Below, piece by piece: positions 6,779 to 31,579 of a stretch of DNA of 64,000 nucleotides. This DNA is from Heptranchias perlo. Its lineage: Eukaryota. The notes under the pieces are model-generated. The model had not been told where the DNA came from and made no database searches. It worked only from the letters and a program-made list of their open reading frames with translations. The stretch covers positions 41,168,001 through 41,232,000 of the forward strand of contig NC_090335.1 in assembly GCF_035084215.1 (NCBI RefSeq), read 5' to 3'. The position numbers were made by a program, and so were the translations under genes. How positions within the stretch are numbered: position 1 is the stretch's first letter; every line of letters starts with the position of its first letter.

Positions 6779-6903
6779 CTCCCTCTCTGATTGGGTTTGT
6801 GAGGAAAGACTGGGCATCCCAGAACACTATTGGTCTGTCATGGCAGGAGCCAGAGCATCCAAATGGAATCATTCTGGACTACGAGATAAAGTACTATGAA
6901 AAA
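6779..6903 (+). CDS. EPHA6: EPHA6 internal coding exon (125 nt), N-terminal half of second FN3 repeat
   Basis: Acceptor cctttcag and donor gtaagg. Translates (A)[41 protein letters not shown], which matches the recalled EphA6 sequence [22 protein letters not shown]...[10 protein letters not shown]. Phase 1 start, phase 0 end. Confidence 0.95.
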
Positions 6904-10213: not shown

Positions 10214-10376
10214 GAACACGAACAACTCAGCTACTCCTCTACAAGGTCCAAATCTTCCAGTGTAATCATTAATGGACTGAAGCATGCTACGAAATATGTA
10301 TTTCAGATCCATGCCCGGACTGCAGCTGGATATGGCAGTTACAGTCAGAAGTTTGAGTTTGAAACCGGAGATGAAT
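10214..10376 (+). CDS. EPHA6: EPHA6 internal coding exon (163 nt), C-terminal half of second FN3 repeat
   Basis: Acceptor tttcatgcag and donor gtaggt. Translates EHEQLSYSSTRSKSSSVIINGLKHATKYVFQIHARTAAGYGSYSQKFEFETGDE (part of ORF 10208..10516). In phase with the previous exon. EHEQL and YSQKFEFETGDE are EphA6-characteristic. Confidence 0.96.
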
Positions 10377-17790: not shown

Positions 17791-20044
17791 GTCATTCTGT
17801 GTCAATGTGCTAACCATGTTAAACAGTACCTAGCATCTACTGTAGGAGAAATAGATATGGATTTTAATTTATATCTAGGGGTTTTATATCTGATTCCTAA
17901 TTTGACATTTGAATAGTCACAGCCTTAGTCTACTTAACATATCATAATTCAAGTTCAGAATCACAACCTTAGATTCCATTTTTGTGTAACATTATAACAA
18001 AATAGTGAAGTTCACTTCCCAGGATTACAGTGCATACTTGGCAAAATAAACTTTTGCATTTCCTATTATATGAAGATAATATTCATATGTTTTCTGGATT
18101 AAGTCTATGACTTTATGTGATAGTATAAAGAAATATAATGAGGATGAACTAATATATAAAATCAGTTTAGACTCTGCAATGTACGAATTTGGGCTGTTGG
18201 AGTACATTTTCAATAAGTCATCTGTAGTCTTTTATTCTTTGTCTCTTTCTACCACGTTGACGTTATCATACTTTATCTGTCATGTGAATGCACTTTTGAA
18301 GCATAACACATAAACTAAAGTATCCTTGCTTTTTACAATTAAAGCAATACTCTAGTCTGGATAATTTGACCAATTCATCACTTTTTATTAAGCTTGGGAT
18401 TCCAATTAAAACTACACAAACATATCAGTACATTTTAACCATCCAGCACTCTGCAGGTTTTTCACATCTGTACTTAAGTGAAAGTTAACAAGATGTGTAC
18501 TATTTTTGATGGAGCTATTTCAAGTGACAATACTGTTGACGATGACAGGAGAAGCAAACTTTCTTTCACCTGATGTGTACCAATTTAGTTATCATTTTGG
18601 TTCGATTCAAATTCAGTTCAAGTGGCAACTTGTCTTATGTACCATTATCATGCAGAATGTCATTTATTGCAGCTTTTCCTACAGTCCTCAAGTGTACAAC
18701 AAGCTCAATGTCAGAAACAAATTAACACAAGGTGTTCAAACAATAGAAAGACTTCAAATTTCACCGTGTATTCTGATTGACTCCGAAGGTTATATTGAGA
18801 TTGAAGTTGAAAGCAGATTGCATCTCAGCCATCAGTATGCACCTATCTCTGTGGTTTATTTTGAAATATGTATTGGTATTTTTACTTATTTTTAAAAAAT
18901 CACTTTGAATTTGGCCTTAGACAAAAAATAATCATTTTAGAGGTGAAGGTTACTTTAAGAGTTAGGTCCTTATAATAGTTACCCCAGATGTGTCTCTGCT
19001 ACTTATATTTATATCATGACCATCATTTACATCATCATCAATGGATTAAAACTATCAAAAGGTCAGACAGTTTTTTTTAAATCCTGATTGTTTAAATGTT
19101 ATCTTCTTCCTCATTGGTTAAGTAACTGTATTTTCTCTTTTCTTATTGATTAATTTCTAATTGCACTATTCACCAATCATGCATTTGCAAAACTTTTCTC
19201 CCCGATTTTAATTATTTTCCCCAATCCTGTTCCACCCAAAGAAAAATGTCACCAATCACAATGCAGCAAACAAATTGTAACTTTGTAACATAATAACAAC
19301 ATAAAAATACAACAATTCAGAAAAATAGCAGAAACTTAACTATCGACTAACTCATCTCATCTGCTAAACACTGTTAACTTTCCCCTGAATGGCCCAATGC
19401 ATCTCCCCAGGCTTCAGGTACACCTTCTCCCAATACTTCAGGACTCAGCATCCCCTGCCTAGCTGAGCTCCAGCTTTGCCAACACATGCAACCTCTCTTG
19501 GCTCGCTGCCTTTTTGACCTGCGTAAATAAATAGCATGCAAACAACCCTACTCTGCTCATTCCTCAGTTCATCTGTGTTCTTTGTACCATCAGATTTTAA
19601 AATAAAATTTAATAAGTTTTTTCCTCTGCCCTCCTGCATGCCATCTGTGAGTTATAAGCAGCTGGGTCCATGCATCTATCTTATTTCGCCAATGTTTTAC
19701 AGTGCACATGCCTGTCATCTTTATCTTGGCCCTATAGCATCAGAGAATCTATCTGGAGCCAGTAGTTAACACAGAGAGAGGAACACAGCGAGGCAATCTG
19801 TTACTCACTGACAGGATACTCCTGTCAATTTGCACTTATTTAAATCTTAAAATGTCACTGCCCCAAATACCCCCTTGCCCCACCTGTACCATTTGGAAGT
19901 CCAGGCTGTCCATTCCCTACCTGAGCCTGAGCTGCCTCAAATCAATGCTGTTCACAGCCCCATCCCAGCCCAGGGCCCTGCATTCTGAATGACCCACATG
20001 TGATCTCTGCCACTTCCTTTCAAGCTGATTGATGTTCCAAACTT

Positions 20045-20260
20045 ACATAGAATTTACAGCACAGAAACAGGTCAATCGGCCCAACTGGTCTGTGCCGGTG
20101 TTTAGCTCCACACGAGCCTCTTCGTTACTTCATCTAACCCTATCAGCATATCTTTCTATTCCTTTCTCCCTTATGTACTTATCTAGCTTCCCCTTAAATG
20201 CATCTATGCTAATCGCCTCAACTACTCCATGTGGTAGCAAGTTCCACATTCTAACTTCCT
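20045..20260 (-). mobile_element. CR1 3' end fragment
   Basis: acatagaatttacagcacagaaacagg..tctagcttccccttaaatgcatct..gcaagttccacattct is a reverse-complement CR1 3' terminus. Confidence 0.75.
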
Positions 20261-24745: not shown

Positions 24746-25741
24746 GCCCCCCGTCCTGATGTTGTCAGTTTGAGGGGGGGTCCAAAATGTAGGTAAATAT
24801 ATCTGAACACAAGAATTCTGAGTGTGAACAAAGAAATCTCAGTCAAAACACAAGAACTCCCAGCAAATGGTTTGTCTGAGAGAACTGCTTGTCCAGCTAC
24901 AAAAACTCACCTTTTCTTCACGTGTCAATCACTGGTTTAAAGGTCCAAATGAGGGCCGGCTGCAACTCGTCTCCGTTTCCATGGCATGTTTCAGAGGTCA
25001 CGGGAGACATGTTCAGGAGACGTTAAAATGGTTTGTGTAACTCAATACACAAAATGTTAATCACATTAAGTGGTTTAAATACCTATATTGGCCCTTTAAA
25101 TATCAGACAGCCGGCTTTAAGTGTCAGCGAGACTTCTGGGTGTCTGATGCAGTCCTGCTCCGAAAACGGAGTATTTTCACTGCCCACCTGTCCCCAACCC
25201 ACCCTCGCTTTGGGTTAAAATTTACCCCAGAGTGTCTGTATTTATTCTCTTTTGACTTGATTTTATTTTCTGGCCATTGTACCTTCCCCAATGTTTGGGG
25301 AAGGGCTGTAGAGGCCAGCAAGAGGCCATTGCTGACTCGTGGGGCAAGCAGAATGGCTCAACCCCTTAGTGATCAGAAAAGCATCTGCTCCCTCCATTGG
25401 CATAGTTTGTACTGCTCTCAGGATCACTGCCGTCTCTGAAAACACCAGTGTAACCCATCTTTTTGAGTAGATTTTAGCATCTCCTAAAGCAGTTGAGCCA
25501 CCTAATTTACCTTACAGTGTATCTGCCAAAGTTGGAGCCGCCACCAGTTGCAGCGAATGTAAGATAAATAAATACAAATAAAAAAGTTTATATATAGTAC
25601 ACATGGTGATTTTCTTGGCTTTTCAAGCCACATTAAACTTGGTTAAAAGTACCTTAAAATAACGCCAATTTGTAAAAGTCACATGAAGTTCGAGTTGAAC
25701 TGGGATTAACTAAGCAGTGTAATCCTTCATAACAGATGTGT

Positions 25742-25942
25742 AGAACATAAGAACATAAGAAATAGGAGCAGGAGTAGGCCATACACCCCCTCCAGCCTGC
25801 TCCGCCATTCAGGTCATGGTTGATCTTCGACCTCAACTCTACTTTCCCGCCCTTTCCCCATACCCCTTGATTCCCTTAGTGTCCAAAAATCTATCGATCT
25901 CAGCCTCGAATATACTCAATGACTGAGCATCGACTGCCCTGT
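25742..25942 (-). mobile_element. CR1 3' end fragment
   Basis: (agaacata)n tail followed by aggagcaggagtaggcc..cctgctccgccattc, the reverse complement of a CR1 3' UTR. Confidence 0.85.
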
Positions 25943-26289
25943 GTAATTGGCCACAGCTGTAATATAACAACACAGATTTCTCACTGTAGTGGTCAACGTG
26001 GGATTAGATCATGATCTAACTTTAATTTTTACAGATGCAGCAATTAATTGAATACACAGTATATTGGCTACAGTACACAAGGGAGCATCACAATTATAGT
26101 AAAGTTTACCTGATAGAAGGCACTATTTGAATCTTCAAATCTACAGAGAGATTCTTACATCGTAAATGTTACTGCAGTACTGCGCTGCTAATTATGTACT
26201 AATCTTCATTACTACTGTTACTGGCTCCATTTAGAATGTGCTTTAACGTAACTTTGTTAAACCTGTGTGAAAAATAAAGAAGTCTTAAT

Positions 26290-28250
26290 GGGGAGAATTT
26301 TAACCTCTGAGAAAGGGTGGGTTGGGGGTGGGTGGGAAGTTAAAATAATAGAACTTTGCAGCGCCTCTGCAACCCGGCTCCTACACGCCCACTTCCGGGT
26401 TTAATGGAGGCACGTTTGGCTGCGTGCGAGTAACCTATTCACTGGAAGCGGGTCGATAATTAATGCGGGCGGGTGGGTACTTATCAGAGCGATTTACCTG
26501 ATTATCAGATGTTAATGAAGCGATTTTAAATTGACTTTAACAGACCTTCGAATTTAATGCCTCCAGCACGGGTTTCCCGGGGCTTGGGAAAGTCACCAGT
26601 GAAACGGAGGTGAGATTGAGCCGCAGTTCATGGGGGTCTTTAAAGTTCTGAGTACCCCGGTGTGAATTAAAGCTCAGCGATTACAGCAGATGTCTCAGTT
26701 CCCTCTGGCTAACGTTTGGCAGAAGGTTCTTGGGTTCATACAGTTTTTTCAGAACTTTGGAGGTTTTCAGACAAAATCAGGATGGGGGTGGGGGCGCAAT
26801 GAATGTATTCCATAGGACATCGGATGAGGAGGACAATCACCATCCAAGTCAGTGACGTCGTGCTGTGGCAGGATCTGCAGGTGCACAAATGAAAGGTGCA
26901 TAACACAGATCTGGAGAACAACAGAGTGGAGAACAGCAGAGAGGGGAGCAGAGTAGAGAACAGCAGAGAGGAAAGCATCAAAGGGACCAAGGTCACAGGA
27001 GACACAACCCATGTGCGAGCGTCTATTGACAGAGGCACAGCTTCCTTGACCTATCTGAAGAGCGGTGCCCGCACAGGCTCAGATTGAGCTGGCAGATGGT
27101 CGCAGACATCTGCAGCCTCCTTCAAGAAAAGCTACTTCCTGCTGGATCTGGTGGCTACGTATTGCCCGTTCTGTCAAAGTCACCACTGCCCTCAATTTCT
27201 TTGCCTCTGGCGCCTTCCAGTGTGTCACTGAAGACATCTCCAGGATCTCTCAGCCGGCTGCACATAAATGTGTAAGGCAGATAATGGATGGGTTGTTTGC
27301 CAGAGCATCCACTTGTGTGAACTTCCCCCGCGACGACGACAGCCAGAATGAGCGGGCAGTCTGTTTCACCTCTCTGGCTGCCTTCTCAAGGGTGCAGGGG
27401 GAAATCGATTGCACACTCGTGGCAATCCAAGGACCGCCACATAGTATCCTGGCATCATAGTAGTTATGCTGATAGAGTTAGATGAAGAGGACTGGGAGGA
27501 GACTCGCGTGGAGCATAAACATCGGCATGAACCAGTTGGGCTGAATGGCCTGTTTCTGTGCTGTACATTCTTGTAATTCTATGTAGACATCCAGCATTCA
27601 TGGTATGTCTCCTCCATACCATGATCAATGCTAACATACAGCAAATGAAATTGTGTGGACAGTTTTCTTGTCTAGTGCCATGGGTGAGGGGGCCAAGAGC
27701 AATAGAACTGAAGTGCGATGTGCTTCATGTGCGATGTGCTTCTTCATGTGTGATGTGCTGAGATGTGGCCAATTTTGGTGCCCGACGCCATTAATAGGAC
27801 CCAGGGACACCCTGGTGCAGGCTGTCCCCCTCTCGGCATGGTTTGGTGCTAGAAAACTGGGTAAGAGAAAGGAGCACAGTTGCAGATCTGGGAGATCTGT
27901 AGCTGTGGGCTTAGCAGATGGCCTTGCGAGTTACTGGCTGCAGCCAGGAATGCTCAAGGCCCAAAGATCTGGTGGGTCACTGACATCTTCAGGGTCCTCT
28001 TCTGCTTGCTGCCAGGATACATCCTCAGGCACCCCAGTCTGAGACGTGGGCCCGGCATAATCCCTCCATCGACTTCTTGGGGTTCCCCTACTTCTGGGTG
28101 TATCTACAGAAAAAGAGGCAAGAGGCTAGCAATGCCTCCTTTCACCTCATTAACATGTCAGCGATGAACCTTCACCAATTGCTGGCCCAGCTCCACCAAC
28201 CCGGGGAAGCCCCAGAAACCACAGCGGGTGAGACCTGGCATAATGGGTCT
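26290..28250. mobile_element. Deleted Harbinger element (transposase 5' part, + strand) containing a short CR1-type 3' tail
   Basis: Left TIR GGGGAGAATTTTAAC. VKVTTALNFFASGAFQ..SRVQGEIDCTLVAI at 27065-27460. CR1-like tail at ~27455-27585. Right end not resolved. Confidence 0.7.
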
Positions 28251-29737
28251 CTGCACTTTTTTCCTGATCGTGACACATTCATGACGGGACATTCCTCAGG
28301 TGCAAAGGTCAAGGAAATTGGCTCCTGTGTGTCAAAACTGTATTGGAGCACAATGATGAAAAAATTCGTTCACCTCTGAATTTTTTGCTTGAGAGAAATC
28401 AATGTTCAGCGGTAGGCTCCGGTGAACATTGTCATGGCCGCACCAACAACTGCAACGCAACAGTAGGTCATTGCCCACCTCATTTCTGCTGGGCAGAAAG
28501 GCTGAAAATTACGTGGAAAAGTGGAAACATTTTCATTCTCCAGCACAGTCAACTTTAACGAGCACAAAATTGGAAAGGAAAAACAGGGCCAGGTGAAGTA
28601 TCAATTCAAATATGTGATACTATCTGTAACCCTCTAACTATATTTTATCCTCATAACCATGATACTAAATGAGTACTTTGCACCTGTCTTTACCAAGGAA
28701 GAAGATGCTGCCAGAGTCTCAGTAAAGGAAGATGTAGTTGAGATACTGAATGGGCTAAAAATTGATAAAAAGGAGATACTAGAAAGACTATCCAGTCCGG
28801 ATGGGATGTGTCCTAGGTTGTTGAGGGAAGTAAGGGTGGAAATTGCAGAGGTACTAGCCATAATCTTCCAAACATCCTAAGATATTGGGGGTGGTGCCAG
28901 GGGACTGGAGAATTGCAAATGTTACACCCTTGTTCAAAAAAGGATATAAGGATAAACCCAGCAACTACAGGCCAGTCAGTTTAACCTCGGTGGTGGGGAA
29001 ACTTTTAGAAACGATAATCTGGGACAGAATTAGCAGTCATTTGGACAAGTGTGGATTGATTAGGGAAAGCCAGCACGGATTTGTGAAAGGCAAATTGTGT
29101 TTAACTAACTTGATAGAGTTTTTTGATAAGGTAACAGAGAGGGTAGATAAGGGCAATGCAGCTGATGTGGTGTATATGGACTTTCAAAAGGCGTTTGATA
29201 AAATGACATATAATAGGCTTGTCATCAAGATTGAAGCCCATGGAATAAAAGGGCCAGTGGCAGCATGGATACAGAATTGGCTAAGTAACAGGAAACAGAG
29301 CGTAGTGGTGAATGGTTGTTTTTTGGACTGGAGGGAGGTATACAGTGGTGTTCCCCAGGGGTCAGTGCTGGGACCACTGCTTTTCTTGATATATATTAAT
29401 GACTTGAACTTGGGTGTACAGGGCACAATTTCCAAATTTGCGATGACATAAAACTTGGAAGTGGAGTGAGGAGGATAGTGATAGACTTCAAGAGGATATA
29501 GACAGGCTGGTGGCATAGGCCGACGCATGGCAGATGAAATTTAACGCAGAAAAATGCAAGGTGATACATTTCGGTAGGAAGAATGAGGAGAGGCAATATA
29601 AACTAGAGGGCACAACTCTAAAAGGGGTACAGGAACAGAGAATTCTGGGGGTAGATGTACACAAATCATTGAAGGTGGCAGGGCAGGTTGAGAAAGTGGT
29701 TAAAAAAGCATACGGGTTCCTGGGCTTTATATATAGA

Positions 29738-29935
29738 TGTAAGGAATCTTACAACACCAGGTTATAGTCCAACAAATTTATTTTAAAATCACAAGCTTTC
29801 GGAGATTCACCTGACGAAGGGGATAATCTCTGAAAGCTTATGATTTAAAAATAAATTTGTTGGACTATAACCTGGTGTTGTAAGATTCCTTACATTTGTC
29901 CACCCCAGTCCATCACCGGCATCTCCACATCATGG
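29738..29935 (+). mobile_element. 198-bp Penelope-like fold-back mini-element inserted in CR1
   Basis: 12-bp TSD tttatatataga (29726-29737 and 29936-29947). Long inverted repeat at 29738-29894. Contains gttggactataacctggtgttg..caccccagtcc, recalled from shark Penelope-type terminal repeats. Confidence 0.8.
29806..29843 (+). ncRNA. Minimal type I hammerhead ribozyme motif (possibly inactivated)
   Basis: ttcac CTGACGA a ggggat a atctct GAAA gc tt atga contains the CUGANGA and GAAA core boxes, stem II, and a palindromic AAGCUU stem III. Confidence 0.7.
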
Positions 29936-31579
29936 TTTATATATAGAGGCATAGAGTACAAAAGCAAGGAAGTTATGATGGACCTTTATAAAACACTGGT
30001 TCGGCCACAACTGGAGTATTGTTCCCCATTCTGGGCACTGCACTTTAGGAAGAAAGTGAAGGCCTTAGAAAGGGTGCAGAAGAGATTTACTAGAATGATT
30101 CCAGGGATGAGGGACTTTAGTTACGTGGATAGACTGGAGAAGCTGGGGTTGTTCCCCTTGGAACAGAGAAGGTTGAGAGGAGATTTGATAGAGATATTCA
30201 AAATCATGAAGGGTCTAGACAGAGTAGATAAAGAGAAACTCTTCCCATTGGCGGAAGGGTCAAGAACCAGAGGACATAGATTTAAGGTGATTGACAAAAG
30301 AACTAAAGGTGACATGAGGAAATTTTTTTTTACACAGCAAGTGGTTAGGATCTGGAATGCACTGCCAGAGGGGGTGGTGGAGGCAGATTTAATCATGGCC
30401 TTCAAAAGGGAACTGGATATGTACTTGAAAGGAAAAAAATTGCAGGATACGGTGGGGTTGTGGGACTAGCTGGATTGCTCTTGCATAGAGCCAACATGGA
30501 CACAATGGGCCAAATGGTCTCCTTCTATGCTGTAACCTTTCTATGATTCTATAATTTCTCTACCCATGACAGTTACCAACACTGTTAGAGACTCTCCATT
30601 GTATTCAGGGAGGAGAGTTAACATTAATAATGTTAGGGCTTATTAGCTTCACCAGCCAAACATCCAACTGTTTGATCTCCAGCATTACAGGCTCTCTCCA
30701 CCAATCTCAAGAAAGAATTCAGCAGGTTTCTACTGTTTTTAAGAAAGAGCAGTTGTCATGCAATCAATTATATGCAATGAATACATTCATAGTAAAATCA
30801 GGACATCAGTTATTAGTTTGGGTGCAAGGAATCTGGTTCCATTTGCACATGTGCATTCTCTTTCTTTTCCTTTATCCATAATCAAAAATAATCACTTTTC
30901 TGTCACTTTTAATACCTTTAAATTATCTGGTAATAACTTCTATTATTACCAGCTGTCATCAATTTTTCAGCTCTATTGGTGGATTTGATTGGTGAAGGAC
31001 AGTTGATCAAGTGAGGTAGATGAGACATCTGAGAAGCTTGCGAGTTTAACTGAAGGTTCAAGAAGTTATCTTGAGGCCTGTAATGCCTAACAAATCTCAG
31101 CATCTCTAGGGCAGATTTTGAAACTCTGAACCTTGGTAGTGTGCTTTCTTGTTGGTAGCCCCTTTTTCCAGACAAACATGTCACTGTAATGTTAAGTCAA
31201 CTAATCTGATTGGTTCTTGCTATGTTGACTTGTTTTCCTGTGATTATTTTCTCCCATGGGTTTGGAATAGTAATAGGAGTGGGAACATTACACACTGCAC
31301 ACCACATCCATCTTATATATTAAGCCATCACCTAAATTGTTGCCTTGAGTGTAATTCTACATTCAGTTTACTAATGTAAGGTATTCACTAGTCTATCCAG
31401 TTTACATGTGCTGTCTAGTATATCTACCACATTTTTATTTCTCAGTAGCCAAATATTAGTTAATTTTGATTTTTCACTCAATTCCAAAGTTGTGCATTGA
31501 TTTATTTATACTCGTCATTCTCCTGTGGTGTTGCACTTGGGTAGCCAAAACCACATACTTCAGGTCAAGCAGGGTTAGA

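Follow-up and report, generated by a model that had tools for sequence, protein, structure and literature searches.

The 198-bp insert at positions 29738-29935 of the window (the whole stretch of 64,000 nucleotides that was analysed) is very probably a doubly 5'-truncated, head-to-head insertion of a Penelope-like element (PLE), likely assembled in place out of two short cDNAs, and is likely both immobile and non-cleaving. A very common PLE has left an ordinary trace here, likely a dead end, with an architecture that has already been published. The window copy itself matters little, being one among thousands of decaying insertions, and the family to which it belongs provides a natural data set on the formation of the inverted pLTR and tail of PLEs and on the role of the hammerhead.

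The insert is bracketed by two identical 12-bp TSDs, AT-rich and on the forward strand (TTTATATATAGA; left copy 29726-29737, right copy 29936-29947). The inverted arms, 29737-29807 and 29825-29895, are 71 nt long and 96% complementary with three mismatches, and the predicted fold of the insert region has an energy of -115 kcal/mol, with z = -17 relative to 200 shuffled sequences. The right-hand arm (29805-29894, forward strand) is a 5'-truncated pLTR in sense orientation, which starts 3-6 nt upstream of position C3 of the hammerhead motif (HHR), inside the truncation hot zone of the family described below. It contains an AATAAA (29850-29855, forward strand), the candidate polyadenylation signal of the pLTR, and nearly all aligned long copies have it as well. 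A PLE tail of about 40 nt (41 nt in the window; 29895-29935, forward strand) follows this arm only and ends at an ATG (29932-29934) that corresponds to the ORF-opening ATG of full-length copies. The left arm (29738-29807, reverse strand) is an inverted, 5'-truncated and tail-less pLTR that spans +14 to +84 from HHR C3 and does not include CUGACGA. At the head-to-head junction the two arm alignments overlap in a 3-bp ATT microhomology (29805-29807). The left arm is identical to a sister copy (L061), from which the sense arm differs at three of 129 sites (29831 C>T, 29840 G>A and 29847 T>A); judged by these three changes, the insert is a young copy. An Rfam scan of the locus returned miRNA hairpin matches only, all below the gathering threshold, and fold-back stumps of this type could be mistaken in annotation for microRNA hairpins or for MITEs.

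The element is abundant. In the 3.25-Gb genome, a 32-nt piece of the arm has 20,624 exact matches, the arm-tail join 8,837 and the HHR pattern 5,619. In long copies the HHR is preceded by a UTR of about 270 nt and, further upstream, by an ORF. [quoted passage not shown] The C-terminal 171 aa of the parent are nearest to GIY-YIG clusters (0.96), in which 23-44% of the members carry that family, and the translation has the YLI...YIG spacing; Pfam made no GIY-YIG call in the parent ORF, and a PDB search with this ORF gave no match. In eight ORF-start copies, picked from 30 loci for running on into the ORF, the tail is directly continued by an ORF starting at the ATG that ends the window insert. 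Four of the eight have open frames of 813-902 aa and belong to sister subfamilies, not to the window's own. Copies with the order pLTR-ORF-pLTR also occur in the genome.

By this domain layout the insert is the pLTR end plus tail of an EN+ PLE of the Neptune/Nematis type, for which RT, a CX2-5CxxC linker and GIY-YIG at the C terminus have been described (PMC8557442). The left arm, by its alignment, is a second, inverted, shorter and tail-less copy of the same end. An earlier reading made from the sequence alone had described a discrete insert with a 12-bp TSD and near-perfect inverted arms, had related it to Penelope and had asked for a partner carrying RT and GIY-YIG. These points hold, and parent ORFs with RT and a GIY-YIG-like domain share the end of the insert. 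As a separate observation, one sister-subfamily copy (L274, G000:C1:22730500-22737500) has a 902-aa PLE ORF reaching from RT through the endonuclease, indicating recent activity of that subfamily. The long pLTR variants include at least two types of 3' UTR that have diverged strongly from each other although the ORF end and the HHR/tail next to them are near-identical. Most copies of both types have, upstream of a TATA-like box, the motif ATTGG/ATTGC (reverse CCAAT-like).

The same sequence-only reading assigned the insert to a non-autonomous, retrozyme-like family. We weigh here a clonal mini-element of this kind, whose fold-back RNA would be transcribed, processed by the hammerhead and mobilised in trans. 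Short fold-backs with fixed outer ends are indeed common, the best BLAST matches are alike over about 195 bp, and the HHR stems are kept throughout the family. These features can be set against the junctions themselves, taken from the first 100 places of each of two match lists on contig C1 (184 distinct ends, not chosen by junction; size and junction figures beyond this contig are extrapolations). Among the 184 anchored ends there were 72 head-to-head pairs; 34 ends lacked an inverted partner over a distance of 3.7 kb, and another 34 were not judgeable. The inversion points were variable, as that reading itself had expected of ordinary truncated insertions: the 72 pairs span 121-3,559 bp, 39 of them less than 300 bp. 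Exactly one arm carries the tail in 67 of the pairs (right in 35, left in 32). A TSD was detectable in 63 of 72, and 54 of 72 scored 12-15 bp with one mismatch allowed. These counts include pairs that resemble nested insertions, namely one of the short ones (C1:7567561) and, among the long discordant ones, at least C1:10761443.

Genome-wide, the junction of the window copy is found at only seven places, and it is absent from all 39 short inserts sampled on contig C1. At the seven places the tail is on the HHR-complete arm in two and on the short arm in five, and there are two sequence variants, with both arms switching together. Since these places have the tail on either arm and fall into two variants, the junction arose at least three times. 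The 30 best BLAST matches have common outer ends but already diverge at the centre. The insert resembles non-LTR retrozymes (bioRxiv 10.64898/2026.07.22.740005) in being non-coding, pLTR-derived and equipped with a type I HHR. That preprint defines retrozymes by direct repeats in tandem that carry two or more HHRs on the same strand, whereas the insert consists of just one inverted unit, whose only complete HHR is damaged; no tandem array was found at the locus, and only one HHR pattern lies in the window. The insert moreover stops at the ORF start, whereas an anole PLE required ORF sequence beyond the RT start sites (PMC11167929). The comparison of junctions indicates that the window junction recurs rather than being inherited, its recurrence being favoured by the ATT microhomology, and that the insert is a truncated PLE insertion and not a member of a clonal non-autonomous family. 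We consider the latter very improbable.

The arm ends carry further information. Of 100 arms of the window's subfamily, 27 have their 5' end between -12 and +9 of HHR C3, where the rate further upstream would predict 2.3. Between -13 and -30 there are no ends (1.6 expected). The nominal p of 1e-19 is overstated, because the interval was picked after seeing the data and the arms within one insertion are not independent. A mixed sample gave 34 of 100 ends between -15 and +4, after three longer arms among 37, misassigned for want of a matching UTR reference, had been dropped; 16 ends are common to both samples. The edge of the pile-up is sharp and lies about 30 nt below the TATA-like box. Among 28 long pLTR variants, strongly diverged UTRs included, 26 have the first base of the TATA-like hexamer at -35 to -42, and in the other two it is at -52 or absent; from the position -35 to -42, an RNA start is expected at about -5 to -14. 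One pLTR-ORF-pLTR copy located beside a long inverted arm (L271, G000:C1:151528000-151533500; 859-aa frame before a stop) has a 5' pLTR that starts about 10 nt upstream of HHR C3 and about 30 nt below its own TATAAA, and the other seven ORF-start copies begin elsewhere. In the window, the sense arm starts within the hot zone (-6 to -3) and the left arm stopped at +14. The place at which the sister hairpins fold back is likely where the RNA of the element begins, as far as genomic copies can tell. For comparison, a TATA box plus TCACT has been reported in a rotifer pLTR (PMC3846280), and a TATA-less internal promoter in Penelope of D. virilis (PMC2377424). The literature searched, largely open-access main text, contained no description of this PLE family and none of a PLE start site as a hot zone of truncation; the family may be catalogued already.

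The HHR cleavage site was also considered as the truncation point. Cleavage is predicted after 29839, equivalent to +29, and no peak of arm ends was seen there in either sample. The nearest ends are +23, +24, +24 and +27 in the window's subfamily, one of them compatible with +29, and +18 to +25 and +34 in the mixed sample. This candidate was rejected at the population level.

A different origin of the same PLE insertion would be a single cDNA that snaps back at the stems of the hammerhead and primes itself, in which case the hot zone would reflect the structure of the RNA or cDNA and not the 5' end of the RNA. Because of stem I, cDNA ends at -4 and -12 are self-complementary. Some junctions (e.g. 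C1:4023038) show short tracts of snap-back, and self-priming has been proposed in PMC3846280. The observed ends, on the other hand, are spread from -12 to +9 instead of being placed at the stems, with none at -13 to -30, and either arm can be the longer one, just as either can carry the tail. The subfamily signatures of the arms bear on both possibilities. Both arms are identical at all 10 diagnostic sites in 17 of 28 pairs (9.6% expected at random), and this match of the arms in most pairs is also predicted by one-template or snap-back models. Arms of different subfamily (at least two sites) were found in 8 of the 52 scorable pairs, including 3 of 22 short ones, 20 of the 72 pairs being not scorable; arms of different subfamilies inside one TSD are impossible from a single folded strand. 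Snap-back, or a stop set by structure, appears unlikely to us as the origin of the inverted arm and of the hot zone, but is a serious rival. The pile-up and the mixed arms together suggest two cDNAs that run off the 5' end of the RNA, sometimes from two RNAs. Two short fold-backs (L098 and L038; G000:C1:4023038-4023300 and C1:7746222-7746450) have HHR loop II signatures that differ between the arms, the first of them inside a clear TSD, and such mixed signatures suggest two RNA templates in one insertion.

Under the explanation that we favour, of a PLE insertion from two truncated cDNAs, the GIY-YIG nuclease would cut the two strands about 12 bp apart, and from each cut 3' end a cDNA would be primed at one or the other of the internal RT start sites between which the tail lies. 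The arms do have fixed outer end points, one each, about 40 nt apart. The cDNAs, often copied from same-source RNA and sometimes from different RNAs, would stop early, most often by running off the 5' end of a pLTR-initiated RNA after about 95 or about 135 nt, just upstream of the HHR. They would then lose a few bases and be joined via microhomology, ATT in the case of the window. All of these putative steps are read from genomic copies. Priming from both ends would not be obligatory, given that 34 of the 184 ends have no inverted partner and 34 more were unjudged. In an anole PLE, two internal RT start sites, with which the two outer end points agree, define the tail, both strands are cut and extended, and HHR cleavage is dispensable (PMC11167929). 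The architecture and the two internal RT start sites are published (PMC8557442, PMC3846280, PMC11167929).

Inverted 5'-truncated copies, a one-sided tail of 30-40 bp and hammerheads in the pLTR are standard features of PLEs (PMC8557442, PMC3846280). The insert shares with canonical EN+ PLE insertions (PMC8557442; Pen2a_Av, PMC3846280; D. virilis Penelope, PMC2377424) its head-to-head arms, one-sided tail, TSD and a pLTR reaching up to the ORF start, as well as, in the parent pLTR, a TATA-like box with a TCACT initiator-like motif. It differs from them in that its arms are too short to keep any ORF, and its TSD has 12 bp compared with 8-10 bp in the rotifer examples (PMC8557442, PMC3846280). 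Among the paired insertions in the samples, roughly every second one is such an ORF-less stump. The Anolis element Poseidon PAc (PMC11167929) likewise has AT-rich targets and two preferred 3' ends, which agree with the tail and are separated by about 40 nt, and is reported with no sign of HHR-cleaved RNA as a template. [quoted passage not shown]

We give about even chances to a more specific proposal, according to which the short fold-backs would be to PLEs what strong-stop DNA is to retroviruses: promoter-initiated transcripts would yield a pair of run-off cDNAs, one primed on either side of the cut, at least sometimes on two RNAs (a dimeric RNP). They would be strong-stop-like because RT starts internally, only about 95 and about 135 nt from the 5' end of the RNA, and long copies would need read-through tandem transcripts. 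If this holds, the junctions of thousands of stumps would map the start of transcription, uncleaved RNA would be the template in vivo, and the PLE architecture of an inverted pLTR plus tail would be explained. The sharp edge of the arm ends, the missing peak at the cut site and the mixed arms are in vivo footprints that can be compared with the in vitro system of PMC11167929.

The HHR of the window copy is a minimal type I motif in a decayed state (29807-29843, forward strand). It consists of UCAC (29807-29810), CUGACGA (29811-29817), an extra A, stem II (GGGG/CUCU), GAAA (29832-29835), GCUU and AUGA (29840-29843), the last serving as the 3' strand of stem I. The window has one such pattern, against 0.04 expected by chance, and Rfam hammerhead models gave no match either at the locus or in the better-preserved copy L061. 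The change 29831 C>T converts the conserved G10.1-C11.1 pair to G.U, and 29840 G>A destroys the 1.1-2.1 pair, so that both pairs closing the core are mutated. The second of these changes had been picked out from the sequence alone as the G>A (AUGA) in stem I of the sense copy, and 29831 C>T adds a further hit. The predicted probability of the HHR stems is about 0.99 for the motif of L061, about 0.13 for the isolated window motif and 0.0 within the whole insert, in agreement with the earlier suggestion that the fold-back would sequester the hammerhead. According to these folding predictions, the copy in the window is very probably inactive.

At the family level, conserved features are the core, an extra nucleotide after position 9, G10.1-C11.1, a palindromic 15.2-16.2 and the presence of stems I and II. 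In 210 copies from contig C1, changes in the stems are mainly wobble-compatible (GGAG or GGGG versus CUCC; UCAC or UCAU versus GUGA), and position 7 and loop II are free to vary. The comparison of these 210 copies is a weak test of conservation, since the core is partly fixed by the search pattern and many of the copies were fetched by HHR patterns. From the pattern of substitutions the hammerhead looks to be under selection in the family. The family shares with the metazoan PLE min-HHR of PMC4209133 the extra nucleotide after position 9, G10.1-C11.1, the palindromic 15.2-16.2, a short stem I and opposed motifs close together, which fits the earlier assignment to the minimal, dimer-type PLE hammerheads. 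Opposed min-HHRs 100-700 bp apart that derive from truncated PLEs have been described there, and single min-HHR motifs (monomers) were reported to give no cleavage. Stem II has 4-5 bp here versus 7-8 bp in the metazoan motif, and the window copy, unlike that motif, has lost the G10.1-C11.1 and 1.1-2.1 pairs.

The insert interrupts a decayed, 5'-truncated LINE (28657-30565, forward strand), consisting of ORF2 and the 3' end and recognised from repeat cover, translations and RVT_1 (Pfam, E 8e-23). The LINE reading frame picks up again after the TSD, and we take this LINE to be CR1-like. Two exons of an Eph receptor, encoding the first and the second half of an FN3 domain, lie upstream on the forward strand (6779-6903 and 10214-10364, approximate bounds), and a juxtamembrane Eph receptor exon lies on the same strand about 4.6 kb beyond the end of the window; the best PDB match is EphA8, and the sequence-only reading had named the gene EPHA6. 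With the FN3 exons upstream and the juxtamembrane exon downstream, all on the forward strand, the insert is intronic and its HHR is in the sense of the gene, as had been stated from the sequence alone. Contigs of presumed RNA runs, compared with the locus, gave short repeat fragments that are uninformative about expression, editing or start sites specific to the locus.

The intronic sense position and the very stable predicted hairpin could be taken to favour co-option, in which the Eph receptor pre-mRNA would use the insert for regulation, either as a hairpin or as a switch that cleaves itself conditionally. Such a role is extremely improbable in our view. The copy is young, all three changes are in the sense arm and two of them harm the HHR, the nearest upstream exon identified is about 19 kb away, there are thousands of like insertions, and no cleavage was reported for minimal HHRs as monomers (PMC4209133). 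The off switch suggested by the sequence-only reading gains no supporting evidence from the locus, at which no sign of a host function was found.

In several other copies (e.g. L012, L013, L158, L182) the PLE has repeatedly hit the same or a nearby AT-rich site in LINE ORF2, which is possibly a target hot spot. Elsewhere in the window, a 45-bp unit occurs in perfect tandem duplication at 1803-1898. High-copy short repeat fragments were seen at 604-850, 20040-20255, 25741-25945 and 27463-27585; these four begin or end in short tandem units and resemble LINE 3' ends or SINEs.
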